Positions 13,183 through 62,692 of a DNA stretch of 64,000 bases are shown here, in pieces. A program made the translations under genes and the position numbers. The notes under the pieces were generated by a model. It saw only the letters and a program-made list of their open reading frames with translations, searched no databases and was not told the DNA's origin. This DNA is from Marsupella aquatica. Its lineage: Eukaryota; Plantae; Marchantiophyta. The first letter of the stretch is position 1. Each line of letters begins with the position of its first letter. The DNA lies in the NCBI GenBank assembly GCA_973895155.1, contig OZ316897.1:186001-250000 (forward strand), written 5' to 3'.

Positions 13183-13373
13183 ACTCACTCATCTTCCTTG
13201 GAGCCTCCACTCCCTCACATGGGTACATCGAGTACTCTCCATATTTAACGGAGGTTGGATCCTCTTTCACTCCTGCTATCCAAGGCAAGAAGCAAGCAGT
13301 ATAGGACCACCAATATGTTTTGTCAGCAACTTCTCTATCCACAAAAAAATGATACGTATATCTCTTCGCCCTC
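13183..13373 (-). pseudogene. Middle piece of element A ParB-MTase cargo gene
   Basis: RAKRYTYHFFVDREVADKTYWWSY...YSMYPCEGVEAPRKMSE matches element B RAKRYVYRFFMHMEIVKPDYFWAY...YSMYPAEGILPPRKLSE. Confidence 0.8.
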
Positions 13374-13488
13374 TGTGATGCCTAGACAGGAATCACTCGG
13401 CCAGTTAAGTGGGTAAAGCAGGAAGGCACCCTAGAAACACCTTAGTATAGGGACAAAACAAGGAAAATATAAACAATTAGGGGCAACC

Positions 13489-14034
13489 ATGGAACCCGGG
13501 CCGAGGCCGGGGGTAAGGAGCGCTTGCAGGAAATGGTGGCTCATTTGCGAGCACGAACTAGGCAGACGACTACGGGAGGCCAACTACTGTCAGCTGCTTA
13601 GGGAAGCACTCGGGGAGAGAGTAGATACCGACGATCGACCTAAGGAGGTTATGAGCAATGTCAATCAAGCGGCACATTTCTGGGGATGCCTGTTCGAACG
13701 GGCAACTGAGTACATCAAGACTTACGAGGACGAGGAATCAGAAAGGGCAGCTCAAGAACGACAGGAGCTCGCTTGATTGTGGGAGCTGCAGAAGACGGCT
13801 TTCTTAGGAGGTGAACTCATCAAGGACGAGTTCTTGTGGACTCCTACTTCCAATCAACTCGACGATCTTCTGTTTTGCAAAGACAGCGTCGTCGGCATCC
13901 GAGAGGCCATCAAGAACTGCAACGACATACACTGGGAATTAAAGGGTAGCACGGAAAGGTGGACCCAAGCAACGGTGCTAGGAGAAACCTCCACGGCAGC
14001 AAGAGATGAAGAGGAAGGGAGCCGTCAACGATGA
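13489..14034 (+). pseudogene. LTR-internal ORF1 (unknown function), in-frame TGA at 13774
   Basis: Homologous to 43560-44070 (QAAHFWGCLFE/QAAKFWGYLLE; FLWTPTS/FVWIPTS; VVGIREAIKN). Its 3' end overlaps the start of ORF2. Confidence 0.7.
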
Positions 14035-17000
14035 AGCCACCCCGGCAAAAAGAACGAGGTTGGCGGCACCAAAGAAGCCAACCGAGCAGCAGAGCAGGAG
14101 GCAGAGAGAAGCCGAAGAGGAGGAGGTCGATCCCATCAAGGCCATTCCAACCAGGGATGACACCTGGAAGGGCTGGGCGGCAACCCTACCGGTAGAGGTG
14201 CAACTACATTTTGCACGGGAGGAGGATGCATGCTTTACGGCCATGCAAACCAAGAAGTACCAAGGCTTCATGGCCGGATCCGGCTTAGAGGCCTTTGTAA
14301 GATTACCATGGCTGAAGCCGGAGGTACCGGAGTCAGACCTATTAGAATTCGTGGGGTCATGGGAACCCGAGACCAATTGCACGAGGATATATGGGAAGGA
14401 TTTCTATCTTACTCCCAAAGTGATTGCCGAAGTGTTTGGCTTGCCGATAGGCAATAAGACCAAAGTTGATACCAGGAAGACCTTGCCTGACAAGGAGATC
14501 CGGTCGTTCCCCGGGCCATCAACGAAGAATGGCTTCTTCCGGAACACCTGCACCAACCCGCACATAGGAGAGATGATCGACTTCTTGCGGGTGACCATGC
14601 ATTGTAACTTGCCGAGGGCAGAGATCGGCAAGGCACAGGTCTATCTGGCAGAGAGGCCAGACCCAAGCCGGGACTACAACGGGTACCTCCTCAACCAATT
14701 GAAGAAGATCTTAAAGGAGGAGCAGCAGGTAATCGGCATGGGGAGCGTGTCGCGGCTTGGCTATCACATGCCGCTGTTGTGCCGGTATGCCAGAGGTCAG
14801 ACTTTTGCCCCAGTACTTCCCCTGCAGGTAAGGGCACCCGAGGAAGCTCCAGCGCCGAGGCCGTTAGCAGAGAAGCCTCAACCACCTGTTAGCCCTACAA
14901 TCGAGCAAGTGTTTAGGCCAAGGACGGAGGACTTGCCGATGCAGCAACCAGGCATGCAGAGTCTGCTGAAACTACTAGAGAAAGAAAAGAGATCGGCATC
15001 GGCAACGACAACGACAACGGCAACGGCAACAATGCAGGACACTACTACAGAGGTAGGCCTACACCGGCTCACAAGAGAAAACCCCTTTGCTGGAGACAAG
15101 GAGAGAATCAGGCCGGAATTCAAGCCAGGTGTTCGAATGTATGTGGGAGTCTCAAGCTCCGAATCTGAGGCAGAATTGCCTGAAGCTCCTACCGACGAAG
15201 AGGACAGGGAGAAGCTGGACGTCCAAGAAGTAGAGGAGGCAGTGGAGGACTGCAGCCATGATAATTCCGGCTATGGGTCGGACCATCACGTTCCAGGAGT
15301 AAGGACCTGTGGCCGGTTTGTCCCCACACTTCCAAGGGTAGTGCGAGGGGACCCCAACCAGCAGAGTAGCCCTGAGTCTCCCCCACCAGATGTTGCTCCC
15401 CCGAGCTTTGACGGCATAAAACAGACGGTGCAGGAATTTCAAGAGCGAATCAGGCAGGAAGAGGAGGCAGCCCTGGCTAGGGAAAAGGATTTACCAGGAG
15501 GAGATTGGCCGGAGGACATCAGGCGGCTAGCCGAAAAAGGAAGCAAACCTCTAGCCACGATTGAAGAGATCCGCAAGATGGCTTGGGAGCAGAGGCCACG
15601 ATGGGCGATGCCGATCACTTCTACTTACTCCACCTATGCTAAGAATAGAGCCATGGAGTATGGTGAGATGTGTGGGGAACTTGCGCTCGGCATCTTTGGA
15701 GAGGAGTTGGAGGTAGGACCCTTTTTCCATAGGGAGCAGTTGGAGAAGCACCAATTAGAAGAAGCGGTGGCTTTAGAGAGAAGCAAGAAGGACGAGGTCA
15801 TTCGGCGGCTTAGGAGGATGGAAGCCGAGATTGAAGATCTAAGGGCGGCCAAGAAAGCCCAAGATGAACTGCAGATTAAACGGCATGAGCTGAACATCAT
15901 GCAGGGGCAGTTGGACACCGCGCAGGCTGATAATCAGAATATCAAGGATAAACTGACTCAGACGCAGGGAGAGTTGGCCGATACGATCAAAGAGAGAGAA
16001 GTGGAAGCGAGAGCTGAAGAATACAGAGGAGGCCCACATAACAGCCATCAGCCGGGCCATGGCGGAGACCCAAAGAAAGGAATGGGCGTTGAAGGGGGAG
16101 CTCGAGAAAATCCGCGGAGCCCTTGAGCAGAAGGAGGCCGAGTTAGGGAAATCCTATCAAGGGATTATGGCGCTGCAGCAGGAGCTTGCATCCCTGACGG
16201 CCAGCTTCAAGGCCGACCTAAGGGAGAAGGACGAGATGCTCGATCAGACTTACGCCAAGATGAACCAGATGGAGTCTGTCATCATTGCAGAGCTCGACAA
16301 GGAGCTAAGAGCAACCCGGGAGGAGAGGACTACCTTGAAACAAGAACGGGAGGAAGCCCAGAAGGAACTAGAGGAGGCGCGCAAGGACCTAGATGAGACC
16401 CAGGAGGAGTTGGAGGAAATCACGAGGAAGATGGAGAACCTCCAGCGGCGGGCCGACAACCAAACAGAGCGGCTGAAAAAACAAGCCGCAATATTTAAGT
16501 GCTTGTCTTCATCAGGCCCAACTCCAATTGGGGCAACCAAGTTACCAGGAGTGGTACTGGCCGAAGAAAAAGCCGCGCCACCTGCACCAGTGCCGGAAGT
16601 AAGTGGGAAGGGGAAAGGACCAGCTGCCGAACCAGAAAGGAAGAAGAAGCGGAAACCTTCAGGGTCAAGGAGTAATCCGACTCCACAGGCCGTGGTGACC
16701 AAGGAGGTAGACCCAGCACCATCCTCCGGCATGAATATGGCAATAGATTCCGCTATCATCAAGGGTGGGGATGGTGCGGCCCAAGCCGAACTACTCAGTA
16801 ATGAGGCCGGTATCCCAGATCCGCCTCTTGAGCAGGCCGGTGAGACCATAGCCGAGGCTGAGGCCGTAGCCGAGAATGACTCCCGAGCCGATGCCGACGC
16901 CGATGGTGGACCCAGTCAGGCCGATGGAGAGTTGACTCAGTCAAGGGCAGGTAATCTGTCAGAGAATGAACCTACGGCAGTGGCTGAGGAGGAAGCGTTG

Positions 17001-17036
17001 GGGGCGTCCATTAAGGATCCACCACCGGTGTCGTGA
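14006..17036 (+). pseudogene. LTR-internal ORF2: basic NLS-like start, PMD/Transposase_32-like domain and long coiled coil; frameshift at about 16010-16060
   Basis: MKRK...KRTR; GLEAFVRLPW...LLEFVGSWEPETNCTRIYGKDFYLTPKVIAEVFGLP; E/K/Q-rich heptad-like region. Homolog at 40515-43550. Confidence 0.65.
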
Positions 17037-17950
17037 CGGTGCAAGGGCGCCGTTCCTTTTAGGAAGGGCGGACGTGGAGGGAGGAGGCGTGAGTGGGCAG
17101 GGCGGGCGCTGATCTCCAAGTTTAGGATTAGGATCAGGACCAGGAGCGGCCCTGACACTTAGCTTAGTGGGATTGCGGTTCCACTGGTAGGAGCAACACT
17201 TGTGCTCCTGCCTTGCTATACATAGGTAGATCCGGGCAAGTAGATTACTGTTAGGTAGCTTAGGCTTACGCTGCAAAGAATTAGGCGGATCCACTACCAG
17301 GATAAGTACCTGGGCAGCGGGGAGCTCAGGGCATCTTCTTTAGCAAGTTTTTAGTTTGCACCAGCCGGGCTGGGATCAAGTAGTACGAGAAGCTCTCGGT
17401 TAGTCATATAGTGACCCTTGTGTATATTCATGTTTCCTCATGCCTAAGAGCTGAATAGAGTTGGCCTCACGGCTTAGTTCGCAGAGCTTGTGTATGAGAT
17501 GTACTGTTTGTATGGCAAGTGCATGGTATGACTCAGTCAGAATGAGTCATTTTGCTATTTGTGTGTCGCATTAACTTGTGTGAAGAGTGCCCACATCAAC
17601 CAGAAGGAAGGAAAGTAAGCAGGGGAGTGAGAGTTGGATGTGTCGAGCTGAGAGAGGTCTTAGCGGCTTAACCAAGCCTATTGGGGATCATTCCGGCGGT
17701 GGAATCCAAACATACCTAACAAGACGGAGGGGAAGACGAGGGAAGGCCTAGATTAGGCCGGCTACGTATCTCATGACCCGATGAAGGATCTGTCCAGTAT
17801 ATGTGTGTAAAATGTTAATAGTAATAGTAGAAGGTTAGCAGCGTCCCATGCCGCTAAGCCGCGGAAACGGCCTCGCCAAGCGCGAAACCTGCGGGAATCG
17901 GCTTGAGCTGGGGGGTTTCTTGGGTTTAGGGAGCCATGGGACGCACCACA

Positions 17951-20900
17951 CCCTCCTCCAAAAAAGTGAGATGTCAATCTTCTCACTCGACTTTGGTGGC
18001 CAAATCTGTCTGAAAAAACGAGATTTCACTCTCGTTTGGAAATCTTCAAAGTCCTCCTCTATGTCAAGGATCAGCGATGGCTTTGTCTTCTCAGACGAAG
18101 TAAGGATCCTTGCATCTGGAACAGTTGGGATCATCTCTGAAATATCTCAGACATGAGCGAAGAACAAATTGACTCAACCTGCTCCCATACAGCCCATCGG
18201 TGAAGCCAAAGTTTTGTTTCGCTGTCCGAGAATTGACCAGGGTGGAAGTACTTCTTGCGAAGCTCAGGTCTGCATTGTGCCTCGAGGAGTACACATCTGA
18301 GCTGCGGAGTCAACGACGAGACACCCGTAAATAGCCTCGCACGATCAAGACCACATGACACATTACCCCTTCCTTTATCGTTTGTTCGTTGGGCTTCCTT
18401 CCTCTCATGTTTGCAGTAGTTGTGCATCTCAACACACTTCTGGAAAAAGTCACCAAACTCAGGATTCAAGAGAGGTCCAATCTTTGGCACCTTCACATTC
18501 CAATCTGCTAGTTTCTCTTTCATCATGTCTTTCATAGCCATGTCTTGCGCAACTTTTGAAAGAGGTTCTCCTTGCGCTTCTTTCAACTGGAACTTCTTCT
18601 TCAAATCTTCCGTCTGCGCTGCAATATTAGCAACAGACAGAATGTATGTGCAGGCATCGAGTGTCATGTTCTTTGAATACCAAGCCGGTTTCCTGATATT
18701 TGCCATCTTCTGCTGGAAAAGTTTGTAGTTGTCTGCATCAATGATATCTTTGTATACAGAAAGGTCATTACTGAGCACCTTCTGGACTCTCTCTGCTTCA
18801 AGGACCCAAGAATTCTCAACGTGACATTGAGTCAACCTGAACAAAAGAAACAGGTCATCGAGATCGCTAACAAGAGGAACTGAAAGAATTTTATATAAAT
18901 CACTGCTTGAAGGAAAAGAAACAAACCTATTCAGCGCATGCATCGCCGACTCAATCTGAATGAATGAGTTCTTGTCACCCTTGAAAATTCGGCAAACAAC
19001 TCGAGGATGATATTTGACATCATGGGGATTCTCGTCCGCAAGCTGCATCCATGAGTACAGACGATGATTTCCATCAAAAACATAGAACATTTTGTCTTTC
19101 AAAATTTTGAAAGCTTTGTGAGAATCACATTCCCTCTCAAATTCTTCATTCTGAAGAATCCACATTGTAGTATTGCATTAAGGACATAAATCAGCATTTA
19201 ATGCCCAAAACTCGGTATTCGTTCCCATGGAAGAACATGTTGGGAATGGTTTTCTATCAATTAACACTTATGAATGACTAAGGTGTCGAAAACACAAAGG
19301 TGAGCCTTTTACTATGGATGCTCAGCAAGGCATAGATTTAAATGTTTGCTTAACATTATAAATACGATTAACAAAATGGAATTAATTAACAAAACACAAG
19401 AAAATCTTGAGGTATGATGAGGGAGTCTGGAATAGACCAAGGTAACTCCTCAACAACACTTAATTTGTGATGATGTAAGGTGAAAAATCTGCAAGAACAT
19501 TTCTGGAATGAAATACTTTACTAGGATGATTATTAAAATGCCGTCAACATATCTTAACCTTTCCTTCCAAGGTACTCAGTTAGGATTAATAACCAATCAC
19601 TTCAGCATCCAGTCGGTACTCCGAGTCACGAATAATGAACACCATCATCGTCAAACTAAAGTCATAGGTAATTGGTCAATAACATTCTTTGCACCCCGTG
19701 CAAAAGCAATGTCATGCCAAAAACTTATGCATCAAGAACTTAGAAATGTATAGCCTTCACCAATTAAGGAATCTATCTCCATACATTCAAAAGATTTCAC
19801 CATTTCACAAGGTTTTACTTCTCTGGTTTGATCTCCAACATTCAAACACAAGGAAGGGGGAAGAATTCCTTTGTATTAATCACTCATGCAAATACAGAGT
19901 TTCTCTCTACAAAGTGAAGCCTTGTCATGCTGCAAATTTGCAACATAGTGCTTACATAATTCTTTCACATTTCAAATGACATAAATTCTACTTTATATAA
20001 GCTGGTAGAAACCCAAGGAGAGAGAAAATGAAAGGACATGCCCTTTCATGCCTCAAGGGTTCTTGAACTAAAGTAAAAATAACAAAGGTGTGCTACAGTA
20101 GTACCTAAGGGTCACATGAGGGTTCCTGGTATATAAAACTAACCAAAAGGTATTGCAAATGTGAACTAATGTAAAAGTGACATTACGGTAAAACTAATGA
20201 ATAGTGGCTTTGTCCTAATTTTAGTTTCTAAACCAAATATCAGTTTGAGATGAAACGTTCCCAGAGTATTCTCTTAGGTATAGTCTTCATGCTGGTAAAA
20301 TCTCAGACTTTTCTGAGGTGTTTAGGTACTTCAATAAAATACCAAAAAGTACCGGAAATAAAGAACTACCGAAAATCGGAAAAAAATTCTAAGTGTTGAA
20401 GGCATAAACGCGTATACACGTAAAAGCGTAAACTCGTAAAGACGTAATCGCGGTGCAGCAAAAACTTAGCAGATTCAAACATTTTTAACTTCCTAGCTAT
20501 AAGTCGGCTTGAGCTGAAACTTTCAGGGATGATTCTACTGCGTAATGACTACCTCCTGAAAAAGTATGAAACTTTTCTGACCATGAGAACTATTTAACTA
20601 AAATATCAGAGATCGGCTGATCGTGGTAATTGCACACAAAGCTCATTTTTGATGAAGTGCTTTGGAGTCCGGTTCTTGAATCTTCTAGTCTGCATTGCTT
20701 CTCCAATGATGTCCAGTCTTCTTTCTTGGTAGCATGCAAAGAGCAAGGATTTATATGGCGATCCTTGTCCAATAGAGGCAATAGCCTCCGATGAAGCATA
20801 ACATCAGGTAAAGTGTTCAATTGATCTAAATTGCTACAAAAGGTAGCTATATTACACCTTTGAGTTAGAAAAAGTTCAAAATTCATAAATTTTCCATCAT

Positions 20901-36342: not shown

Positions 36343-38574
36343 TGTCACGCCAGAAGATTTGTCCTTACGCGGATTTCGGCTTAGGCTGGCATAAACCCCG
36401 TTAGTATTGAGGTTTCGGGCAAGGAGGGATGTGCAAACGGTACTTTATTCCCCTAACCCAGCGCTAAGCGCGCCTGGTTCTACTTCTTTGAGTACCATAG
36501 GTATGCTTTGTGTTCCGCCACTGGAACGTACCTTAAATCGATAGCTTGATCGACCCCGGCTTAAGGGCTTCTAAGCCTTCGTGCTGTCCGCCTCCGATCT
36601 GGATCTGTTGATGTGGCTCTCAACCCGGGCTCGCAACCACTATCCGCGGCTGCACCCCGTGCACAACCCGCATAATGCATTCGGCCAAGCGTATTTGCAC
36701 ACATACGGGACTGACAACTGCAATACTTCACAACATTCAATCCCGGTTTACATGAAGGAAATGCTGGGGAAAAGACTTTACTTCAGAATCCGGTATATAC
36801 ATTCGTACGGTTGACTTGACTTCTTCTGAACTGTGAGCCCAACAGCGGTAAGCTGTACACTACAATGGAGCCCGGCTCCGCACTCGCCCGACGAGATTAG
36901 TCGCACACTCACCCCTTGGTGCCTCTCTGTTCACGAAGGCCGGGACTCCCCGCACATCCTGTGGATACCCGGTTCTGAACCTAAAATCCCCCCCCCCCGC
37001 CTCTACCGGGGGATGCACTAAATACTAACTAAGAGCCGTGGCCAAGCACGGCCGTGACGCCCAATCTAATCTACACTAAATTCCTCTAACTGTCAGGCCA
37101 AAGAACAACGTGTCTTATTCCAAGATCCTATGCTAAGGGGAGTTGGTCGGATAAGACAGCGCCGCTAACTAGTTTCAGCGCTTACCTCCAACGTCCGACC
37201 GCCCGTCTAAACCTATTTCTACTCTACACCTACTCTGCCGCTAATGTTTGGCACGCTTGCCAGACCCACCCGAGTTGGACTTGGACTGACCATCCCGTTG
37301 TCTTCTCAGCCGGTCTACATCCTGCTTGAGTAGTTGGACTTGATCCAGGAGAGATTTGGTCTCTCGCTTTGTTGTGTCTGTCTCCTCCGCGGCGTCCTTG
37401 CATGCCTCTTCCAACTGCTGGGCATCGCTCATCAGGTGCGCAACCAGTTGGTCCTTCTTGGAGAAGCCATGCCACCTCTGCCTTTAGGGCGTCCACCTCG
37501 GCTGCATCTCTTTGGGCCCAAGTGTCAGCCTCCTCCACGTCTTTCTGCCAGATGACGGCTTGCCCATTCAAGCTGTCAATTTGGGTCCCGAGCCGTGAGA
37601 TCTCGACATCCTTTCTGGCCCCGGCTTGCACGGCCAAGGCTACCTTGGCTTCAGCGTCGGTGACCTGGGTCAAAGCGGTCGCAAGCTAAGGCCAGAGAAG
37701 TTGAAGCTCGATTTCTCGGGCTGAGGCTTCATCTAATAGTTTGGTTGCCCCAACCCAATACTGCTCTATCTTCTTCGCGGCTTCAGCCTGAGCATGCCCT
37801 GCTTTCACCGCCGCAACCAGCTCTTGGCTGAAGAAATAAGCAACCTTGCGGGCCATGAACTCCCCCATATCTCGACGAACTTGTAGGGAGAAGTTGCCAA
37901 GCAACCCATTCAAATATGTGCCCGGTCCAAAGAGTTATGGGTTCACCAGAATGTGCCCACTTGGGTTAGGCAAGGACAGACCTCAACTTGGGTGGAGGCC
38001 GGAGTGGTCACATCCAGATCTGGGGTGACGAGGATAGGGGGAGATGGGTCTTCCGAAGGGGAAGGGAAACCCGCCCGGACGGGTGTGGAGGATACTAGGG
38101 CTTCCTCCGTGATCAAGGCCTCTGGTTCGGGGCCAACTTCAACCAAATTGACCAAGACGGTTGCACAGGCCTGGTTTCATGCGTCCAGGGTCGCGATGAC
38201 TGCTGTATCCGGTACGGAAGAAGGGGCTCCAACAGTTGTCTACGGGGTTGGGATGGGGGTGGACACCACGGGCGCTGGACTCCGGGTTTTGGGTTGGGGC
38301 TGCCTCTCCTAATCTGGAAAGACCCACCTGGCCGGGGTGAGTTTGGGCTCGTTGCACTGAGGAAGGGTTTGGCAATCAAAAGACGGGCATACCACTCTAT
38401 GATAATCTCGATGTGGCTTGCAAGGTATGCCTTCCCCCCAAGGTACAAGATATTCCTTCGTCGTTCCATCTCCTTGTGGAACTTCTTGACAACTTTAGAA
38501 AAAAGCCCACTTCCTAGGCCGGTAGTTCTCGACTTGAATCACCTGGGTGGCATTTATCTCTCCCCGCGGCTCCA
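36343..38574 (-). mobile_element. 3' portion of a Gypsy long coding LTR (minus orientation), interrupted at 38574 by a sibling element
   Basis: Starts TGTCACGCC; colinear with 38575-39621 plus 44251-45404; contains coiled-coil ORF pieces at 37230-38570. Confidence 0.75.
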
Positions 38575-40514
38575 TGTCACGCCGAAAGCTTCATCCTTAT
38601 ACGGATTTTGGCTTAGGCAGTCATAATCTTCATTAGTTTTGAGGGTTTGGGCTAGGAGGGATGTGCAAACTACACCTTACTCTCGCAATATAGTGCTAAG
38701 TGCGCCTATTTTTACCTACGTACATAACATGGGTATGATTTGTGTTCCGCCGCCTGAATGTACCTTAAGTCGATAGCAAGATCAACCCCGGCTTAAGGGC
38801 TTCTAAGCCTTCATACTATCCGCCTTTGATCCGGATCCGATGATATGGGTATCCAATCCGGGCTTGCAACCACTATCTGCAATCGGCACCCCGTGCACGG
38901 CTTGGATAACGCGTTCGGTCAAGCATCCTATACCCGCATACGAGACTCATTCATGCAACGGAACCCACAATCATACAATCTCGGTTTACATGAAGGAAAT
39001 GGTGGGGAAAAGACTTTACTTCAGATTGACTCGACGTCTTTTGAATGGACAGGCCCAACGGCAAGGAGGTGTACACCACAACGGAACCTAGCTCCGCACT
39101 TGCCTAGCAAGCTTAGTCATACCCTCCTTCCTTGGTGCTCTTCTATTCATAAAGGCCGGGACTCCCCGCACATCCTGCGGACACCCGGTTCTGAATCTAA
39201 AATCCCCCTACCTCTACCAAGGGGTGCACTAAATACTAACTAAGAGCCATGGCCCGGAATGGCCATGTGCTCAAATCTATCCTTAGCTAACTGTCAGGCC
39301 GGAAACGGCGTGTCCTATACTAAGATTTTAAGCTAACTCGGAGGTGGTCAGACCAGACAGCGCCGCTAACTAGTTTTGGCGCTTGTCCCTAGTGTCTGAC
39401 TACCTGACTAAACTAACTCTACTCTAAATCTGCTACGCCGCTAACGCCTGGCGCACTTGCCAGACCCACCCGAGTTGGACTTGGAGCGCCATCCCGCTGC
39501 CTCCGCACCCGGTCCAGGTCCTGCTTGAGTAGTTGGACCTGGTCGAGGAGAGATTTGTTTTCTCTCTTCGCCACGTCCGTCTCCTCCGCGGCTTCCTGGC
39601 ATGCCTCTTCCAATTGTTGGGTGTGGCGCATTTTCCAACCCTCTAACCCCAAGAACCATCAGCAACCGGCTATGAACCCCTACTTATGGTCGGCTTATGG
39701 TGGTTTAGCTACCATTCGGCTTGGAAATGCGGTCTACTCTTGATCCACACTATGCTGGACCGATTCTTTCACTGGGCTTGCGAATTGTGTATTGCTGAGA
39801 CTCCTAATTCTCTATTGACTTTGTCGGGTATGTTTGTATTCCGCCCCCGGAATGTACCTCTACGGCTTACTCTATTAAGCTGGCTGAAGGTTTTTCTCAG
39901 ACCGACTCAACCCGCACTTTAACCAACAAAACACTCTCAATCCTCACTTTTCTCTCAGAGTTTGGTTTGGTACTCTCCAATCAAGACAATGCGATTGTAT
40001 AGCTTCGCAGTCACTCTATCTGACTCAAATCGATCAAGCAACAAGTATCACAACACACAATGCCATGATTGCAAGAATCTGCGAACTAGGCAACAAGGCC
40101 AACTCAATTCAAACAATTGCACATAAATGGAATTTGTGGTTTACTGATAATCCGTGATCTAGATTTAGCCGAGAGCTTATGCTAGTAATACTGACTTTAC
40201 ACTAGAGTCTTGACTAAGAAAAAGCCCCCCAAGCCACGCTGCCCAGGTTTTTATCCTTGCAGCGCATCCAGGGGAATCGGCGGAAATCCAAACCACAAAT
40301 CACGGCCTTCCATCGTGATAATCCAGCTAATTAACTAACACCTAACATAATTTGACTAACCCGAAACCTTGTGGGAACCGAGCATCTAATACTACCTAAG
40401 CCGACAAGGCGCTACTTGCCCTGTCCCATCCTACAACAATCGCGCCCTTCTGGCCCAAGCCCTTCTCCTACCGCCACGTCCTCCTTCCAACCGACGACTG
40501 GCCCTCTTTAATTG

Positions 40515-43500
40515 TCAGATGACCGGGGGTAAGCCCGAATCTTCCGACTCTACACCTTCTCCTGCCATCGGCTCCGGCTTGATCCCTTTGGCTTCCTCGA
40601 CTTTGGGTTCTGGTTTATCGGCCCCGGCATCAGCAGCGGCATCTTCCTGGGAAACGGCTTGGATAGCGTTGGCCTTTACTTCCTCAATCCAAGCCTGCTC
40701 TCCAATCCGTTCGGTATGGATCTTCCATGGCTTCACATTCTGGTAGTCCATGGTGGTTGTACCGGTGTTTGAACCTGTTACCGTAGCTCCAAGTTCATCG
40801 GCATTACTTATCTCTACCACGGCTGCCTTCGTAGCAACAGTCCCACAAATGTGAGCGGCCATACTCTCAACCTCCTCTGGAGTGGCCTTGAGAGGCACCC
40901 CAGCAGTACCTGCTGGCCCCATGAATGTTTTGGCCAGATCTGCTACCAACTGCATTGCCTTACCCCCAGTTACTCTTGACAATATAGATGTCGACTTTGG
41001 CACTTCAGTATTCCCGGCTACCACGCCACTAGTGGGAGACCGTCCAGTTGGTGATCCGTGCCCGGCTTCGGCATACTTCCGCAACTTCTCTGTTTGATTA
41101 TCTGCACGCCTCTGCAAGCTGATCATCTTGTCTTTGGCCTCCTCCAGCTCTTGGGATAAATCCTCAACTTCCTCATTAAGCCGATGCGCCTCATCCTTGG
41201 CCGCCTTGAGCTCCTTGTTTAAGATCTGCACGATCTCAAACTCCTTCTTATCCAAAGCGGCTCTCTGGGAATCGTTGATGATTTCCAGCTTTGTGACCTC
41301 ATCCGTCCATGCCTGCTTTGTCCGGGTTATCTCCTCTTGCAGCTCCTTGCGTATCTGTTGGACTTGGCTTAGGTGATCATTGGCCACAGTGAAAATGGCG
41401 TCCTCATGCTTCTCTTGCATGGCCTCCAACCGGTCGAGTAACTTGTTATACTTCCTTTGGGCTTCTACCAAGGCCTTCTCGCTCTGGGTGGCCTGGTCCT
41501 TAGCCGTCTTTTTGAGCCTCTAGACTTGGCGAATTAGACCCTGTACCTCTACTTTTGAATCGGCTAACTCCAGCTCTACCTTCGTCAAATTTTCATTGAT
41601 CTGCTGGTTATCCAATTGGTAGTTATCCAATTGGTTGTTTGCCACCTCCAATTCCTGCTGCTTAGCCAACAGATCCTGCTGAGCTTGTTGATCAAACTTT
41701 GTCTTAGCAACTTCGGCTTCCATGGAGCGAAGCCGAGCGATTACCTCTTCTTTCTTTAATTGCTCCAACGTCATTGCCTCCTCCAACCTTGTTTGGTCAG
41801 CCATTTCCTTTCTAAGAAATGGTCCAGATTCTAACTCATTAATTGCCGAAGATTTCTAAGGCTAGCAGTCCATACATGTCTCCATACTCCCTAGCCCGAT
41901 CCGTCGCATATTTTGACCTGCCAGGTGATACTGGCATCTGCCAACAAGGCCATTTCTCTCAAGCTTTGGCCCGTAATTGATCGGAGTCAGTGAGAGGCTC
42001 AACCTGCTTCTCACTAAGCCATTTTATTTTCTCCGGCCAATCACCGCCTGGTAGCTGTCGTTCCTGTATGTCATTTTGGGCCCTCCACTTGTCAAGTTTC
42101 TCCTTCAGACCTGCCTCAGATTCCTTCATTTGGTCAAATTCCAATGGTGTCACGTCCGGTGGAGGAGACTCTGGGGTTTTCTGATCCTCCGGCTTGCCAA
42201 AAAAGACTGAGGGAAGTCTTCTACAAAACCTTCCCAACGTTCTCACTCCTGGCACCGGTCTCTCCCCATGATCGACATAATCATCATCGTAGTCATCCAC
42301 ATTAACCTGACTACCAAGCATGCCGGCCTCTTCTGCAAAGCCCCCAATCTCCTCCTCTGAGTATTGTTGGGCTGCCACTGGTTGATTTACCTCCAGTGGT
42401 TCCTCCACTTGGGCTCGGCTAGAAGCTCTAAGGACTGGCCTCTCCTGACTACGGCTTCGGCTTCCATCTTTTGACTCCGAATCCATTTGCTCATCTCGTT
42501 TCTTTCTTTCTTCGGCAGTCATCTTCCTCTCTACCAGTTGAATACCTGCATATGAGTTATTACGAGTAGGCCGTCGCAATGGATTTTTCACCACATCATA
42601 TGTTACCACCTCTGGTTCCTTGAGAGGGGGATTCTCCCGTCCCTGGACTGCCTATGTTTCCGGCCTATTCTCCCATCCCTGGACTGCCTGTGTTGCCGGC
42701 CTCTTCTCTTGCCTTGCTTGTTCAGGGGCTGCTCGTCCTCCTCCTCCACACGTGCTGTAATCGGCATCCTCTCCTGTAGTGGTAACACGGGTGCAAAAGA
42801 CTGGCTTCTTGCATATTGGCAAAGTAATTGCAGATGGTACCCTAGTTTGGATACCGCTCCTTCCCCAATACTCTGCTTCTCTTCATTCAATGCCTTCCTT
42901 AACTGCATTAAAAGATAGCCATTGTAGTCTTGGCTTGAATCGATATTCTCCACCAAAAATACCTGGGCTTTGCCGATCTTTGCTCTCGGCAATGTACAGT
43001 GTAGCGTGACTCGTAAGAAATCAATCAACTGCCCCACATGTGGATTAGTGCATTGATTTCTAAAGAATCCATTCTTAGTAGAGGGCCCTAGAAATGATCG
43101 GAATTGGTTATCCGGCAATGTCTTTTGCTGCTCCACCTTAGTTTTATTCCCTTGTGGAAGAGCGAAGATGGCTTCAATTAGTGCTGGCGTTAATTCTACC
43201 ACCTTCCCATACATCAGTGTCGTGTTAGAAGAAGCCTCCCAGCATCCTACAAAGTCTACTAGATCTTCGTCTGGTATGTCAATTAATCGCCATGGTAACC
43301 GAATGAATCCCTCTAAGCCGGTGTCGTTCATGTATCCAGAATACTTGTTATCCTGGATAGCATAGAAGATCTCATCTTCTTCTCGTGCAAACTGTAGTTG
43401 TAAGTCGGCAGGTAGCTTATCCGCCCAACCCGTCATAAACTTATCCTCTACTGCCCTATCATGAACTGGCACGGCTTCAGCCTTGGCCTGCCTCTCCGAT

Positions 43501-43550
43501 CGATTCCGCTTAGCTGGTGTTGCAGACGCCGAACTACCTTTACGCTTCAT
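40515..43550 (-). pseudogene. LTR-internal ORF2 homolog (PMD-like plus coiled coil), broken by stops and frameshifts
   Basis: MKRK...LQFAREED...GLEGFIRLPW...GPSTKNGFFRNQCTNPH...LPGGDWPE...LQRRADNQTE; these blocks match 14006-17036. Confidence 0.75.
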
Positions 43551-43559
43551 CTCTTCAGT

Positions 43560-44070
43560 TCATGAGAACTTTCCAAGAATGGCTTCCTTGGTCCAAGCCA
43601 AAGTGTGACCCTTCAACTCCCACACCGGCTGTCCAGCGTTCTTAATTGCCTCCCGAATTCCAACGACTTGATTCTCTCTGATCAGCAACTCATCAAGCTC
43701 GGCACTGGTGGGAATCCATACAAATTTCTCAAGTACCTCCTCCGTTCCCACAAATGTCGTCTTATGAATTCCGCATAACCGCGCAAGCTCCGCCCGTTCC
43801 CTTGCTGCTTGTTCCGGCTTGACATCTTCGTAAGTTGGTATGAGTTGTCGTGCTTCTTCAAGCAAATAGCCCCAAAACTTGGCTGCTTGATCCACCGAAA
43901 GAAAAAGGAGCTTGAACAATTCCCTAACCACCTCCCCCGAATGATTGGCAGCTGCTTCCACCTTCCTAGGTTGATCGTACAAGCAAATGATCAAGTGTAC
44001 AGAGTGTTGGTCCCCTCCCTGCGAAGCCACCTCCTGATGGCTTGCCTGATCAAACCCGGATTAGGTCATA
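43560..44070 (-). pseudogene. LTR-internal ORF1 homolog
   Basis: Matches 13489-14034. Confidence 0.65.
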
Positions 44071-45800
44071 ACCCTAATCCCGCTCAATCGCGACCATTGG
44101 ATCTTACCATTATCGCAATCCCCCTCATAACACATTGCAATCGACTTTGGTCTTTATTCCTACCTTGTACTATTTAGCCATTATCTTTATTTAGCCATTA
44201 TTTGAGGCTTAACTAAGTACTTTGTGATCTTGGCAAGGCATCACATTGGGCGTCGCTCGTCAACTTGTCCACCAATTGGGCCTGCTTTGTGGCTTCTTCT
44301 TGAAGCCGTGCCACCTCTGCTTTTAGGGTGTCCACCTCAGCTGCATCTTGTTGAGCCCGAGCCTCGGCCTCCTCCACGTCCTTCTGCCAAATGACGGCTT
44401 GCCCCTTCAAGCCATCAATTTGGGTCCGGAGCCGTGAGAATTTGGCGTCCTTTCCGGCTCCAGCTTGCTCGGCCAAGGCTTCTCGGGCCCCGGCTTTGGC
44501 TACTTGGTTCAAAGCGGTCGCCAGCAGAGGTCGGAGAAGTTGAAGCTCGGTTTCTAAGGCTGAGGCTTTGTTCTTCAGGTGGGTCTCCTCAATCTGATAC
44601 CGCTCTATCTTTTGCATGGTCTTGGCTCAGGTATGTCCCGCTTGTACAGCCACAACCAGTTCCTGGTTGAAGAAGTAGGTCACCTTTCGGGCCATGAACT
44701 CCCCCGTATCCTATGCAATCTGTTGGGAGAAGTCACCTAGCAACCCATTCAAAAACGTGCCTGGTGCAAAGAGTTCCGGGCACTCCAGGTTATGCCCACT
44801 CAGGGTAGGGCAAGGACAGACCTTCGCTCGTGCGGGGTCGGAGTGGTGACGTCCAATCCCTGAACAACGAAGATGGAGGGGGCTGGATTCTCTACCAGGG
44901 ACGGGGAATTCTCCTGCACGGTTGTGGAGGGTACCGAGGTGTCCTCCGAAATCATAGTGTCGGGCCCGGGTCCGCCTTCTTCCAACCCGGCTTCGTTGAT
45001 CTTGTGAGCCTGGTTGATCGAGTCCAAGGTCGCAATGACCGCTTCATTTGGTACGGAAGGAGGGGCGGCAGCTGCTAGTGAGGCCGGGGTGGTCACGGTC
45101 ACCACAGGTGCCGGGCTTTGGGCTTCAGGCAGGGGCCGCCTCTCCTGAGCCAAGAAGACCCACCTTGATGGAGTGAGTTTGGGCTCATTAAGCCGCGGAA
45201 GGGTTCATCGGTCAAAATGGGCATACCACTTGATGATAATTTTGATGTGGCTTGCAAGGTACGCTTTCCCGCCCAAGTACAAGGTCTTCCTTCTTTGTTC
45301 CATCTCCTGATGGAATTTCTTTACAAAGAAAGAGGCCCATTTCCTTGGCCGGTAGTTCTTGACCTCGATTATTTGTGTGGCTGATATCTCTCCCCGTGGC
45401 TCCATCATGTGGAGGGCGTATAGTTGAAACTCGAGCCGCTTAGCTATCTCCGGGATGAGGCATGTTCTCATCAAGAAGCCGTTGTCCACGCACCCTCGAC
45501 CGAGAAGCTGGAAGATTGATACTTGGCTCCCTTGCCCCCTAGAGCCCGCGACTCTACCCGATTTACTCCCTCAGGTAAGCCAAAGATCATCTTAAATAAG
45601 CCGTGCCTCGTTTAGGGGACATTACTCGTCCGTGCGCACGGGTCAGCTGGCGGGCCTTGTCAAAGTTCTGGATGAACTCCGTCATGTCCTGCCCGTAGTA
45701 TTTGCAAGTATTCCAAGGGAGAGAGGCGAGGTTCTCGAACCCTTGGGTCTTCCGGTAGCATGCATGCTTGGGGTGAAGTATGTTCAAAAGAAGCGTATTC

Positions 45801-46822: not shown

Positions 46823-47549
46823 TATTGGTGGCCTACGCTACATTGGGATGTACAACACTTTATTAAAGGATGCAATTTATGCCAACGGGTTGGCACCCCA
46901 AGGAAATCTCACCACCACCCACTCACCTCCGTACTTTCGCTTGCGCCATTAGAGAAATGGGGCATTGATTACATTGGGCCAATTACCCCAGTCACCCGGA
47001 GGCACAGATCCAGGTACATCTTGCTAGCCATAGACTATTCCACCAAGTGGGTGGAGGCTCGGGCTATGATAAGGGATGATGCCGCTACCTGCGCAAGGTT
47101 CCTGTATGAACAAATCTTTACTCGCTTCGGGCCACCCTTGGAGTTAGTCAGCAATCGGGGAATGCATTTCATTAACAAGACCGTGGAGCGCCTTACGGAA
47201 TGGTACACCTGGTCAAGCACCGCAAAACCACCCCGTACCATCCAAAAGCCAATGGGCTGATTGAGATGGCAAACGGAATTATCGGGAAGATTCTCAACAG
47301 AACTGTAGCCGCACACAAAACGGATTGGGATGACAAGTTATACGCTGCTGTGTACTCGTACAACTTGGCTTACAAAACTACTACCAGTCACAGCCCGTAC
47401 TTCCTCGTGTTTGGACAACACTCGTTAGTACCAGTTGAGTTCAAAATTAACACACCACGGATCAGTGTTCGGGATTGCTTATCCGAAGCCGAAAGTTCTT
47501 CAGATAGAGCTTACCAGATTAAAGTGTTAGAAGAAGCCTGGGTACTAGC
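46823..47549 (+). pseudogene. Gypsy integrase fragment (inverted relative of 45801-46314), interrupted by element B
   Basis: YWWPTLH..C..C..WGIDYIG..YHPKANG..SPYFLVFG..EEAWVLA|; continues at 58452. Confidence 0.9.
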
Positions 47550-47695
47550 AAGGTGTTTACAAAAGGCAGTAAATAGCAAACAGCAAACTATAACAGGAAC
47601 TGGTAACAGCAAAATTTGTTGTTTTGGGTGCACATTTCTCCTAGTATTGTGGCAAAATTAAAAAAAGCGGTTCCTAAAATACTGATAATTATGCG

Positions 47696-47835
47696 ATGCC
47701 GAATACTAGTGCCGGGAGTCTATAGGCAAAACAATCACAAACGCATCATGCCGAATACTAGCGCTGGGTGTTCAAACCCAAAATAATGAAACATTAATCG
47801 CCCAAACATGCCGAATACTAGAGCCGGGCGCTTCT
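47696..47835 (+). repeat. Three subterminal direct repeats ATGCCGAATACTAG followed by a degenerate element-B palindrome
   Basis: Copies at about 47696, 47748 and 47808. Confidence 0.75.
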
Positions 47836-48643
47836 AATGCTTTGTGGAGAAAATCACGAGAATGTAGGATTGATGTTCAGGCTAAGAGCCAAGTAGAAAC
47901 CAAACATTTCCAATAGTCTAAGTTCAATATCAAAGCACAAAAGTAGGACTTAACCAAGGTATCTGAGTCAGAACTTCTAACGGGAAATTGAAAGAAAAGA
48001 AACCCAAGATTTTTTATTTAAGTGAAACATATTGTCCTCGATGTACAAATATTGCTACATAGGAACACTAAAGTTGCCAGTACAATTGTAACTAGCGCCA
48101 AGCGCTAATACTCCCGGTGGGTGCTTCCTCGTACAATGTCCTAGCTCGAAGAGTGACAGTCATTGTCAATCCCAGCGCCCTGACGATCTGGATCTTGGCG
48201 GAAACCATCTAATCGGAAGTTGACATATGCTCTCTTGGGCTGTCGATACACTGGCCTTCCATGGAATTGAGAAGGAGAAAAATGAGAGCAATGGACTTTG
48301 AAAGAAACAATAGTATGTTTATAAGGGACTTGGATTTCCCGTTATTGGCCCTCTTCTCGGTACCAGTTGCCGACTGAAAGCCAAATGACACTAGGGCGGA
48401 AACAACAAAATTCAAACAGAAACTTCCAACGTATTTTTTGGGGAGCGTCGGGCGCTAGTTAAACAAGGAGAGGAACCCACAAAAAGGACGTTACTAAAGA
48501 CCCCATTAACCATTGAATGGAAGGGGCAACCTCCCTCAAACTCAATTCCTATTTAATAAATTCAATAGCGCCCGGCGCTAACAAAAACCAAGGGCATACT
48601 CGTACAGTTGGGCGGAAGTTTGACCTAATAGAGGAGAAAATTG

Positions 48644-48961
48644 CTACCCTTCAGTGTCAAATTTTGAAGTCTCATTCTGGAAGCTATGAGATCTGTCGGT
48701 CGACTCTGCCTCATCATCAATATACTTGCTTCTAGAAACATCATCTACGTAGGGGTTCCTCATGAACTTCCTGTCTACTCCCCTAAGAAGCCTAAGTCCT
48801 TTTGTTTCCCAACAGAGCGTTCTAAATTTCTCTACCTTCCTCGCGACGTTCTCAGCGTATGATGGCAACACAAACGGCTTCTCGGGAGTGATGATTACAT
48901 TTTGAGCCACTTTCCTCCGGAGTTGAAACCGTTTTCTTTGGTTCCATTGTGACCTGCTCAA
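48644..48961 (-). CDS. Small ORF or terminal exon of element B, with YVDDVS/YIDDEAE motifs
   Basis: Homolog of 7-345; candidate acceptor GCAG at about 48954. Confidence 0.6.
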   Translation of the reverse strand: MSRSQWNQRKRFQLRRKVAQNVIITPEKPFVLPSYAENVARKVEKFRTLCWETKGLRLLRGVDRKFMRNPYVDDVSRSKYIDDEAESTDRSHSFQNETSKFDTEG

Positions 48962-49068
48962 AAGAGAAGCGGAAGAGAAAGAGGAAGTAAGTACTTAACC
49001 GATAGAACCGGTGGAATTGAAGGTTAGCCAACAATTGAAAGGATAAAGGAGCTTACGAGAGACGAAAA

Positions 49069-52000
49069 TTACTCGGAAGACTCTTTGCTGTCCTCCGTAG
49101 ACCCATTATGTCGGGTTTCCTCTTTCCCACCGTCATTGACATCCTCAGGAACATCATCTTCTGGCGTCCCATCATCTTCGTCCGAATCAAAGTTGAGGAC
49201 AGATCTAAGTCTATCTTTCTTTTTTCGTCCGGTTATTTGAGGAGGGGGAGGTTGTGTCTCCAAAGGTTTGGGAGAAATGAGATCCAAAAAAATCCTTGAA
49301 GCGGTCTCAACAAACTCTCGATGATTTTCTAACCCGATCTCAAACCCGATGACAAAACGGCCCGAGTAATCCCCAGCAATGAACGTACTACCTAAGCAAC
49401 GGTCCAATCAATTATAATATCCTTAGGTATCGTAAAGAGTTCAAGGACAGTTTGCATAAAACCAACCGGTAGTCGAGAATTCCCAATAAAATGGAGTTCA
49501 GGACAATGATCTTCCTTCAAAGATTGTAGCCCAATAAGGTTCGAGATTGAAGGATCTTCAGTGCTAGATAACGGCTTGAATCTTGGATCCTTTGGGACCT
49601 TTCCTTTAAAAGAAACTCGACAAAATATATCCAGTCTAAGAGTGAAGACCTGCAAAAGTTGACAAACCAACTGGATTTTAAAAATCTCTTATTCATGAGA
49701 GAAGACCTCCTAAGAAAGAAAGAGTAGCGTCGGGCGCTAGTATAGCTATACTCAGAGAGAACATTTACCTGGACATCTGTCTTGTATCTGTACATTGGGA
49801 CAGACATGAAAACATTGTGCGTATTGATGCACATGAACTTCTTGGATTGCTGACGTGCAGAAATGACCTGGGAAATCTGATCGTGGTCATCCGAGTATAA
49901 GATAGCGAGCATGCCGTCATCGGAAAGGAAAGGGTCCATCGCCCGAAAAAATGATTCGGCTGCTGTGTGATCTGTGACATTCCATTTCGGGACCCGACGG
50001 TCAACAATTGTGGGTTTCAAACCAGTTGGGAGATAGATGAAACCCGCATTCACCCCAAATGATCGTTCCTTCCCACCTCGAATGATTCCTTTATCTCTAC
50101 ACCCCGATTTGATCAAATCCTTACCCCACTTCTCAATGTCTGAGACCCAATCTGGCTTCTCTTCCTTACTAAATGCACTATCAATGAATTTTGCCAAGCT
50201 TGATTCGACCATACAGTGTCTTCCAAGTTTGGTCTTGAAATTCCCCACATCCCGTTGGATACCGGCCCAAGAAGCATTATCTCGCGATGATTCCCAGGCA
50301 TCGATGGTCCTTTTCTTCTTCTTCTTTGTGCTTGTAGCATCCACAGGAACTATAACCTTCCCCTTCTCAACGGGGGTGATGGGGTCTGGATTGGCACCAG
50401 TGTTGGCCTCAGAGACTTCTGGTGTTGCATCGACTTTTGTGTCATCCATGGCGGCATCAGATTTTTGCCCACCTACCAAAAAATGGTGTCAAGCACAGAA
50501 AGAGTGTTAGTGCCAGGCGCTGACCAAACACCCACATTAATTTTGGGAAATAAAACATATTAAACTCACGACACATGATAGCAACAGGCGCTACCAAAGA
50601 AGGAAGTCGGAAGAAGGAGGTGTAGCTTACGTTTTTTCCCAGACTTGGCACTAGCACTTGCCACAGGGGCATCGCCTTGGCTTTGGCTCTTGGTTTTTTG
50701 GCTTCTATCAACATGAACCACAGTGGTTTCGCATTTTTTTTGCAACTCAGTCGTTGATGACTTGACGTCCCCCTCAATTCCTTGCTTCATGTCGAAGACA
50801 AATTGTCTCGGAACTTGGGATTTGGACAGTTTATGGAAAGCATCCTTCTCAGTGTCGTCAAAAGGAGAATCCCATCTATCGGTGTCAAGATACCAAGGGC
50901 AGTGAATTCTCTCCCACTCTGACAATTTCCTCGGTGGAAGTATACCCTCAGCGGGATACATCGAATACAGTTTGGCCAAAATATCTCCATCTGCACAGAT
51001 GACCCAATTCTGGAAAGCAGCTGGGTAAGCCCAAAAATAGTCAGGCTTCACAATCTCCATATGCATGAAGAAACGATAGACATATCGTTTTGCTCGCTTT
51101 TGATTCTTGAGTGTGTAGTCTTCCTTGTCCGAGTACTTGGACATTCACATCGTATTGAAAAACTTACCTTTCACTGCATCCCCAAATTTTTTGAAATCAT
51201 TGCACACTATTTCAACGAGTGAGTCATAATACTCACACTTCCATTCCTCCAATCGATTGGAAGGAATTATTTCACTGATTTGCTGGAGGGCAGTCTGCAA
51301 CATACCAATGGCAATTCCCTCCATGCTATTCCAAGTTTTCCAAGTGTGGCACCACTGCTTCATAGGGTCATCACTAACGCTTTGCGGATGAAAGAACTGC
51401 TTCCTGAGCTCTGGCGTGCAATGCGCTACTAACAAAGTGCTCCTCAATTTGGGGTCGAGGGCGGAGACTGCTGTAAATAACCTGGCACGATCCATGGTAC
51501 AGACAACCGCATCCAGTTTCTTCTCGCGTTTGTTCACCTCTGTCATCGGATACATCTCAGCACAAGTTGTCATGAAGTCTTCAAACTCTGGACTCAACAA
51601 GGGAGTGATCTTTGAGACCTTGATCGCCCAATCCTTCGTTGCTTCTTTCATCATGACCGCATGTCGTTTGGATGTCTCTTCTTGAGACCAAGGATTTCCC
51701 TGAGCGGTAGCCGACTCCAGGTCCATCTTGAATTGACGAGAATAGGATTTAATCTTATTCTCGCATAAGATATATAGAAGTGCTTCTTGAGGCATTTTCT
51801 TGGAATACCACGATCCTTTTCGAGTCTTTTGCATCACCTGCCCAAACTTCTTGAAGTTTGCCCCATCGATGATTGATTTGTATATTTTAGATCGTTGGAC
51901 AAAATCCTCTTAATTCGGTTGGCATCAAGTATCCAAGAAGGTTCCACCACGGCCTGTCCAAGTCTACAGAAGAATTTGTCAGTCAATAGCGCCAGGCGCT

Positions 52001-52804
52001 AATAAAAGAAATACTATGAAACATAAGGATAGGTGAAATTCAAAGAGAGACTTACTGGTTCATAGTATGCATAGCCGCCTCAATCTCAATCAAAGATCCC
52101 TTTTCACCCTTGAAAATAGTATATTGCACACGCGGGTGATACTTGCTATCTTCGGGATTTTCTTTCATAACAATCGACCATGCGTAAAGTCGATGGTTAC
52201 CGTAAAAAATGTAAAACATCTTATCTTGTAACACCATGAAGTCTGGATCGGCCGCACATTCAACTTCAAACTTCTTATTCTCGGCCACCCACATCGGGTC
52301 CCAGGTCGCTCGAATTTCTGCAGTACACGTCTGGACATTCCCATTTGAATCTGCCGGCTGGACATAGAACAACATTCCGATTTTTGAGTTATATCCTGTG
52401 CTACAAAAAGAGTCCTTCAACTTTTCAATTGAAGGACTTCCCTTCTGTAAGGCGCGGACAACTTCCATGTGAACCAAGCGGCACATTGGAATCCTTGGGG
52501 GGTCTTTGTCGTGCCCTCAAAAATCCTTGCCAAACACCATAACGTGCTTGGAGATAACGTCGGACATTGTCAACGACATTTCTCCTCGATCTTCCCCAGC
52601 GTATGTGTCGAGATCGTTCATCTTTGCTCTCCTGCTCTTTCGAAATGTGACTACCGCTATTTCGGGAGCTTGGGATGCTGTAGACCGTGTCACTCGACGA
52701 CTGTAAACAGATCCAAAAAATGAGCACTTGGATGTCTGGGAATGGATCTGCTCTCTCTGCCCGTTAGCACTATACCCATGCAAGGTGGTGGGGAGAGGGT
52801 CCAT
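49069..52804 (-). pseudogene. Element B cargo gene: ParB/Srx-like domain, helical region and beta-class DNA MTase-like domain
   Basis: IPMCRLVHMEVVRALQ..IEKLKDSF..GY..FYIFYGNHR; VNAGFIYLPTG..VPKWN..FFRAMDPFLSDDG; RLPVGFMQTVLELFTIPKDIIIDWTVA*..GSTFIAGDYSGRFVIGFE. Introns at about 51964-52054, 50474-50630 and 49650-49768; several stops. Confidence 0.8.
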
Positions 52805-53696
52805 GTTTCGCATACACAAAGTGCTTCACGATCGTGATGAGTACCTCATTCGTACCATACTTCTTCTAGAGAATTCTTGCACGAAGAACCTCCAAAATGG
52901 AACCTAAATACAACGGACAAGGGAGGTGGGGAGAGTATCATCTCTAAACTATCCCCTCGCTACATTGATATCTATTTACGACATTCTCTTGAGCGCCACT
53001 TGTCAATTCTGGATTAGTTGTTGGAATACCGTTGGCATATCTTCAACGTTACGCGACCTAACGTTACCGTTGAATATGACCATTAAAGAATAATTTGGTG
53101 ATTTTAATCTATATTCCTAGGTGAAATCTGATATTGGTCAATAGTAGCACCTGGCGCTACCCAAAACGCTCACTATTTAAACCCTAAGTCAGGACAACAT
53201 TGACCCTGAACTATAAAATAAAAAACAAAATGAATACAATTTTTGAATATTTTTCCTTAAATTAATATCATGATTACCGTTTCAGATTAGCGCTCGGCGC
53301 TAATATTAAATGTCCACATTTTGGTAAAATTTTAGATAATATTTGAAAAATAGCTACAAACATTTAGGATTTATTCTGAAACCCCGGATAAAATATTCCA
53401 GTTTAATAACACAATTTAGGGTGTGGGTTTGAGTAGCGCCTAGCGCTAAACATATATTGCACCATTTTGGGTCCATGTTGGGGTGAGGATGTTTGAGTAG
53501 CGCCCGACGCTACTCAATTACGATGATTTAATAAACATGATTATGGTGTTCAGAAATGGACATCTTAGGCTCATTAGTGTAAATATCGTTGACATAACGA
53601 CAAAAAACATTTATTGTGTCAGATGTGCTTTTGACCGGCAGTGATTCTGTCGTATTCTAACGGCTCTGACAAACGGATTATTCACTATGAATACCA

Positions 53697-57858: not shown

Positions 57859-58451
57859 CATGAATCATGATGATCTAGGTTGTCCCATCGGTCCAAACGG
57901 TTATATTGATTTTGTCGTATGTCAACGGTATAGTGTTATTTATGTCGCGTCATATTTTGTTAGCGCCAGGCTCTGATAATTTTGTTGTTTAGGCTACACC
58001 GTTAAATATCATCGTGTTGTGCTTGATGTTCTCAACGCCAACTATTTGTTTCCTTAAATATCGGTAAGATAGTGCCAGGCGCTAGTCAAGACGTTGTTCG
58101 CTTTTATTTTGGACCATATAATACCATAAAGTTTTGGGCTGCGTTCATTTTGTATTATTTTCATATATTTTGTTGCCGATTGTGGTGGGAACTACCATTT
58201 TTGTGCGCATTCCTTGACATTTTTATGTATGCATCCCTTTGTTTGTGTTGGGATATGAGGTTCAATTATTATGTGGTTCAGCGATTCATGACAAGGTATC
58301 CTCCCTCACCGCAATGGACTAACTCCAACTTTAACAATTCTAAACTCCTGATAATGTGTTCTTTCCCCTGGTACAAGCTGTTTTTTCCTGCTAACAGCAT
58401 AAAGCAAACAGGAAAAGTATTTCCTATCTCGGTCGCTATACCCGTACTAGC

Positions 58452-58758: not shown

Positions 58759-58760
58759 TT

Positions 58761-58770
58761 AAGTAGGGAG
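58761..58770 (+). promoter_or_regulatory. Polypurine tract preceding the 3' LTR
   Basis: AAGTAGGGAG just after the integrase stop and 3 nt before TGTGATGCC. Confidence 0.65.
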
Positions 58771-62434: not shown

Positions 62435-62692
62435 TGAGGCATACGGACGTTGGTCGTACGGATTTTGAATTATTCAACACCTTGGATGAGGAGAATCACG
62501 GGCTTGTTGGAAGAAGCTCGAGGAGCTAATTCCGGCAAGGTGTGGCACGCCTGGAACGGAGTCAGGATGAAGAAGTTATGAGCTCGGGCGTATTATGGAT
62601 TCAAACATCCGTAACTTGGTCGTCCGGGATCCGTTTTGAGTGCTGCTTACGGATTTGTGTTTGGGAGGAGCAGAGCTACCCAGGGCTGGGGG

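Follow-up and report, generated by a model that had tools for sequence, protein, structure and literature searches.

Which kind of mobile element leaves behind 4.6-kb units that have the ends of a long terminal repeat (LTR), lack gag and pol and consist mostly of protein-coding sequence? The question is raised by two insertions, E1 and E2, in a 64,000-nucleotide stretch of the liverwort Marsupella aquatica (contig OZ316897.1, positions 186,001 to 250,000; hereafter the window), which also contains a third unit, E3 (Table 1). We propose, at a probability of about 0.7, that E1 and E2 are solo LTRs of a Ty3/gypsy lineage, each carrying one broken gene for a protein whose core is predicted to adopt the VANC/PMD fold and likely counters host silencing.

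Insertions with LTR-like ends

An earlier note on the window had described E1 and E2 as independent insertions of about 4.6 kb with TG..CA ends, perfect target-site duplications (TSDs), no gag/pol and no internal repeats, and our analysis verified both the coordinates and the ends. Each of the three units runs from TG to CA and is flanked by a perfect 5-bp duplication (CCCTC for E1, TTGGG for E2 and CAGCC for E3), a match expected by chance with p ~0.001. Terminal direct repeats were found in none of the three, and no frame among the 12 that were scanned gave a Pfam match to gag or pol. LARD and TRIM elements are non-autonomous LTR elements with two terminal direct repeats and an internal primer-binding site (PBS) and polypurine tract (PPT). 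The units share with them the TG..CA ends, the 5-bp TSD and the lack of gag/pol, but have neither the terminal repeats nor the internal PBS and PPT.

E1 occurs in high copy number, and its ends are fixed. Thirteen of 15 listed public runs contained part of E1, and five of these were examined. Summed depth was high across the whole 4.6 kb and dropped at both ends, and contigs departed exactly at 17950 into unlike DNA in runs X2 (41 contigs), X3 (21), X5 (3) and X6 (4). The empty site of E1 (a joint of 13368 to 17951 with five shared letters) was recovered in three of four runs (X1, X2 and X5), although the flank is itself repetitive, E1 sitting inside a copy of the element at ~48-58 kb, and these empty sites may be paralogous; X3 showed loose ends at the left flank. 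For E2, the paralogous copy B2 shows the insertion site unbroken.

LTR-less, non-autonomous units with integrase-type ends, moved whole in trans, would likewise produce many independent flanks at the precise end of E1, and in that case only the related family B described below would be a true LTR. Consistent with this, the outer ends of E1 form imperfect inverted repeats (7/8), and pol of the E1 family is absent from the window. On the other hand, no route of reverse transcription is known for units devoid of terminal direct repeats. Ginger-type DNA transposons have long terminal inverted repeats and an integrase of their own, and we found neither long inverted repeats nor a transposase in the units. 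Together with the likeness to family B set out in the next section, these points make movement as LTR-less units improbable.

Table 1. Positions of the units, genes and flanking features in the window
Feature	Position	Strand	Remarks
E1 left TSD	13369..13373	+	CCCTC
E1, solo-LTR-like unit	13374..17950	+	4577 bp, TG..CA; empty site and sharp family ends
E1 TATA-like box, putative	13468..13473	+	183 nt upstream of probable start codon
E1 accessory gene	13651..17036	+	~1,130 codons; stop near 13775, frame changes near 14.0 and 16.0 kb
N-terminal domain ("ORF1" of the earlier note)	13651..13974	+	no Pfam family
Conserved core, domain X	14144..14833	+	predicted VANC/PMD-like fold
Predicted coiled coil	15700..16490	+	period about 3.56
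E1 non-coding 3' tail	17037..17950	+	four TAAGCC/GGCTTA sites
E1 right TSD	17951..17955	+	CCCTC
B2, 3' 2.2 kb of another family-B LTR	36343..38574	-	ends CA
B1, 5'-truncated family-B LTR	38575..45790	-	domain X, linker, coiled coil, tail, CA; hosts E2
E2	39622..44245	-	4624 bp, TSD TTGGG; same gene ~43907-40515, more breaks; inside B1
Ty3/gypsy integrase core	46823..47549	+	PF00665, PF17921
~10.9-kb insertion splitting integrase	47550..58443	.	8-bp duplication on either side (47542, 58444)
Integrase C-terminus and stop codon	58452..58758	+	
PPT, directly after integrase stop	58759..58773	+	
Family-B 3' LTR	58774..64000	+	interrupted by E3, cut off by window edge
Parts of family-B 3' LTR	59145; 59347-59613; 63628-63894; 63955-64000	+	TATA-like box; N-domain; linker; first codons of domain X
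E3	59721..63592	+	3872 bp, TG..CA, TSD CAGCC; decayed frames, coiled-coil-like part

One broken gene and its counterpart behind an integrase

About three quarters of each unit had been assigned to two open reading frames (ORFs). The proportion holds, at 74% of E1, whereas the two ORFs resolve into one broken gene per unit. The gene lies in four coding pieces in E1 and at least five in E2. At both frame changes of E1 the two sides share a single frame in E2, and near 14.0 kb many contigs differ from E1 in length. A HMMER profile of the E1/E2 core, run against 1.84 billion proteins, found 31 relatives; word-index protein searches with the core gave no match. One relative, P0006, looks like a false match driven by repeats and was left out of alignment A3 along with P0021, P0022 and P0028. 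The N-domain, for which no named family was found, and the core occur in a single chain in P0008, P0021, P0038 and P0039, the last two extending further into the coiled coil. Because the frames of E2 and these single-chain relatives join the pieces, the coding part of E1 is one broken gene. Three of ten relatives looked up belong to Calypogeia fissa, where they are annotated as "unnamed protein products"; units of this kind are thus liable to be annotated as host genes.

The protein blocks are conserved, as the earlier note had claimed. Over the 226 codons of the core, E1 and E2 share 63% amino-acid identity, with identities of 0.75, 0.78 and 0.34 at the three codon positions. The comparison of selection between the copies that this note had proposed gave a pN/pS of 0.27 for the core (bootstrap 0.22-0.33); dS was saturated, so that only pN/pS and codon-position identity are reported for this pair. 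Elsewhere in the gene, pN/pS was 0.40-0.42 in the N-domain pieces, 0.43-0.50 in the middle pieces and 0.71 in the coiled coil. In family B, three segments aligned between B1 and B2 gave dN/dS values of 0.35, 0.29 and 1.19, the last over 36 codons. Since the copies in E1 and E2 are both broken, and now dead, the signal reflects selection in active ancestors, not in the solo copies.

What ties this gene to an LTR is family B. Its integrase is split by a ~10.9-kb insertion and bridged by P0040, which aligns over residues 49-286 before the insertion and 286-375 after it; 46 of 120 relatives match both parts. RNase H precedes the integrase in relatives such as P0042 (PF17919/PF17917, PF17921, PF00665), as is characteristic of Ty3/gypsy, and the named relatives come from Calypogeia, Riccia and Marchantia; together with the Calypogeia fissa proteins above, these names point to a liverwort as the likely host. 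The integrase tail presumably resembles that of Athila, judging by a motif. The PPT immediately follows the integrase stop, leaving no 3' untranslated region, and the accessory gene begins ~480 nt downstream of it. P0039 maps to 59347-59613 (residues 29-117, E 1e-11) and, past E3, to 63628-63894 (residues 211-327, E 0.005). An N-domain profile built from E1, E2, P0008 and P0038 matches 59446-59574 (i-E 0.0019), its sole non-self match in six frames of the 64 kb; the profile was needed, as neither E1 nor E2 by itself gave a significant BLASTP match to the family-B N-domain. The last 46 nt of the window correspond to the first core codons and are identical to B1 at 44 positions. The sequence from 58774 onwards thus reads as a Ty3/gypsy 3' LTR encoding the same protein family as E1 and E2.

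B1 supplies the remainder: it runs from the core through linker and coiled coil to a ~0.85-kb tail and CA at 38575. It is fused to a minus-strand integrase copy (46824-45802, to which residues 31-370 of P0042 map), and because this copy is inverted and 92% identical to the same integrase, B1 is probably a duplicate of the LTR at 58774 with a deletion. The arms of the inverted duplication (45802-47349; 92% identical, 508-nt spacer) each lead outward into a family-B LTR. The family-B order is thus integrase stop, PPT, TG, gene, ~0.9-kb tail and CA, and the LTR measures ~3.9 kb when summed from its pieces. An old family-B-like gene fragment with unclear ends also lies on the minus strand at 26500-26950 (tblastn E 3e-13 to B2).

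The earlier note had inferred a Gypsy LTR carrying accessory genes from a start shared with the sequence after the PPT. The LTR reading is supported, with one gene in place of several, and the link that formerly hung on nine nucleotides now rests on protein homology. That start, TGTGATGCC, is indeed common to E1, E2 and the sequence at 58774; E3, to which it had also been ascribed, begins with TGTGATGGG. A further occurrence of TGTGATGCC at 1249, inside a DNA-transposon-like coding region, was taken as chance.

The position of the family-B gene also bears on whether the units could have arisen, by internal deletion or as chimeras, from ordinary elements in which the LTRs are short and the extra ORF is internal, the case the earlier note had named as refuting its view. 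Plant elements of the OTA group often bear internal ORFs with a PMD and a coiled coil (PMC4408406, PMC6317226, PMC7264820), and deletion junctions do exist here, for instance in B1 at ~45790. However, such an origin predicts two LTR copies or a chimeric joint, neither of which was seen; E1 and E2 are colinear from N-domain to tail despite saturated dS, and in family B the gene lies after the PPT, within the LTR. We consider this origin very improbable.

As the 9-nt start, the gene order and the size class are common to the units and the PPT-preceded family-B LTR, E1 and E2 are best regarded as solo LTRs of a family that is sister to family B. Several points limit this reading. A homologous unit immediately behind pol and a PPT was seen in family B and not in E1's own family, of which no full element was seen, and the family-B order was pieced together from two copies. 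Beyond the E1 end no TGG-type PBS consensus emerged in four runs (agreement 0.37-0.63, mixed flanks), in a weak test dominated by unique flanks, in which short overlaps may have been missed. No tRNA gene occurs within the window, and metagenome scans for two copies flanking gag-pol found nothing. On balance, we regard the LTR architecture itself as very probable.

We lean towards U3 rather than R as the place of the gene, the alternative being a giant R. TATA-like boxes precede the gene in E1 (13468) and in the family-B LTR (59145); none was found within the initial 600 nt of E2 and E3, nor in the terminal 1.2 kb of any of the three units. In either position, a solo LTR might serve as a complete transcription unit. 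An extra ORF of the Athila/Tat type may originally have lain between pol and the PPT; if the plus-strand priming site shifted up to the integrase stop, the ORF would have become U3 in one step. Reverse transcription would then copy the gene-bearing sequence to both ends of the element, and LTR-LTR recombination deleting gag-pol would leave a repeat of 4-4.6 kb that retains the gene and one TSD, as in MMTV-type sag. Genes in retroviral LTRs are already known, as are PMD-type extra ORFs inside plant Gypsy elements. MMTV-type betaretroviruses likewise hold a protein gene within the LTR, sag in U3, and persist mostly as solo LTRs (490 of 527 contigs; PMC4667437). They differ in being animal retroviruses with an unrelated, immune-acting protein, whereas here ~1,130 codons occupy most of a plant Ty3/gypsy LTR. 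In the OTA non-chromoviruses, the extra ORFs (PMD, PF10536, in Ogre; Transposase_28, PF04195, in Retand; PF03078 in Athila; PMC6317226, PMC4408406, PMC7264820) share with our gene a PMD-type domain and a coiled coil in a Ty3/gypsy element, LTRs of up to ~5 kb and a 5-bp TSD. They are described as internal, either upstream of gag or after pol and before the 3' LTR, whereas our gene lies downstream of the PPT and has no Pfam match to their families. Tat-like elements of mosses reportedly carry no extra ORFs (PMC4408406).

E3 had been put forward as a third case from another family. Its TG..CA ends, TSD and layout bear this out, whereas homology to E1 and E2 was undetected: none of 39 proteins matched, and hhalign gave probabilities of at most 3.5%, against 97-99% for two frames of B1. 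Its single-sequence structure model was unusable (pLDDT 33), and its atlas matches, bacterial ligases, were rejected. E3 is thus a candidate third case by layout only. Telobox-like GGGTTTA repeats occur in its tail (62690-62870; p 0.02-0.04, uncorrected) and near 5.0 kb (4918-5021), with one similar motif near the 3' end of E1. E2 and E3 both sit in gene-carrying family-B LTRs (36343-45790 and 58774-64000), and contigs connect the E1 end to internal stretches of E1-family members; such nesting may reflect a tendency of these families to insert into each other.

Predicted fold and possible role of the core

The predicted structure of domain X resembles VANC21 at moderate scores. VANC21 (PDB 9LNJ/9LNK) is the only solved structure that matched the model, at 8-11% identity. 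DUF1985 (PF09331) had no sequence match in the core or its 31 relatives, the only lead being an atlas match at 0.89; PMD (PF10536) had no Pfam match in the units or relatives, and an atlas cluster with 14% PMD matched at 0.88. A PDB search by sequence profile returned weak SMAD matches, judged unrelated, and a viral fold library gave no match at E<=0.001. VANC21 (DUF1985) comes from VANDAL21 Mutator-like transposons and undoes host silencing (PMC5735166). VANC has been described as dicot-specific, whereas the core is hosted by a liverwort retrotransposon LTR. The host genes MAIN and MAIL1 (PMD) belong to the same fold class through the published structural homology of VANC and MAIN (bioRxiv 2024.09.27.615353, PMC13547354), a route by which, and not directly, the core is likened to them; they differ in the PF10536 match, missing here. 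The same sources describe PMD-A members as retrotransposon-encoded.

By this model, the core likely binds the element's own DNA and counters host silencing, with the protein presumably forming coiled-coil oligomers on chromatin. An anti-silencing factor that binds chromatin and has a coiled coil is our tentative choice, and another nuclear role ranks close behind. The LTR architecture could be right and the protein could plausibly serve integration tethering to chromatin, nuclear import or control of family transcription, given that the fold is common to PMD/MAIN proteins (bioRxiv 2024.09.27.615353), that plant extra ORFs have no known function (PMC7264820) and that dense tandem arrays of a short motif, the target arrays of VANC21, were found in none of E1, E2 and B1. 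Anti-silencing is favoured by VANC21 being the sole matching solved structure, by VANC21 likewise being predicted to dimerise via a coiled coil, and by one dispersed 6-mer found repeatedly in the E1, E2 and B1 tails (a level reached in 2 of 300 shuffles). According to PMC12844716, whether Athila-type ORFs shape the methylation of their own element is still open.

Neighbouring elements and wider meaning

The ~10.9-kb element (47550-58443, with an 8-bp duplication) carries two divergent multi-frame genes without Pfam match and is possibly an undescribed DNA transposon. Judged by eye, one of these genes bears a SWIM-like zinc motif (near 57.6 kb) and the other a ParB-like motif (near 52.2 kb). 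A second copy, into which E1 is inserted, lies in pieces at ~73-1377, 13184-13373 and 17956-25759. At 8285-12333, a SET-domain frame (PF00856, E 2e-5) stands just upstream of CACTA transposase remains (PF02992, PF13960, PF13952), so that the CACTA element may bear its own histone methyltransferase. An intact gene for a 1067-aa PPR-E-E+-DYW RNA-editing protein, with an internal 5 x 303-bp tandem expansion, occupies 31344-34547.

Full-text literature searches, which did not cover subscription papers or the supplementary tables of PMC6317226, where cases may exist, turned up no plant LTR described as carrying a gene of this kind. The usual view takes plant LTRs to be non-coding and sees in solo-LTR formation the host's means of deleting retrotransposons; here the LTR would be mostly a selected gene that survives the deletion. 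It is attractive to speculate, though on present evidence unlikely, that in an old liverwort Ty3/gypsy lineage the LTR forms a complete gene, with promoter, ~1,130-codon VANC-fold ORF and terminator, and that LTR-LTR recombination by the host, ordinarily fatal to an element, scatters working anti-silencing cassettes which derepress the family in trans via a motif in the LTR tail. If this is the case, the VANC/PMD counter-defence fold served retrotransposons long before the eudicot VANDAL elements. Should the protein work as VANC does, it would count as a candidate sequence-specific anti-silencing factor of an LTR retrotransposon, would give the long-unexplained PMD/coiled-coil extra ORFs a testable function, and would be relevant to the suggested origin of VANC from MAIN in the dicots.
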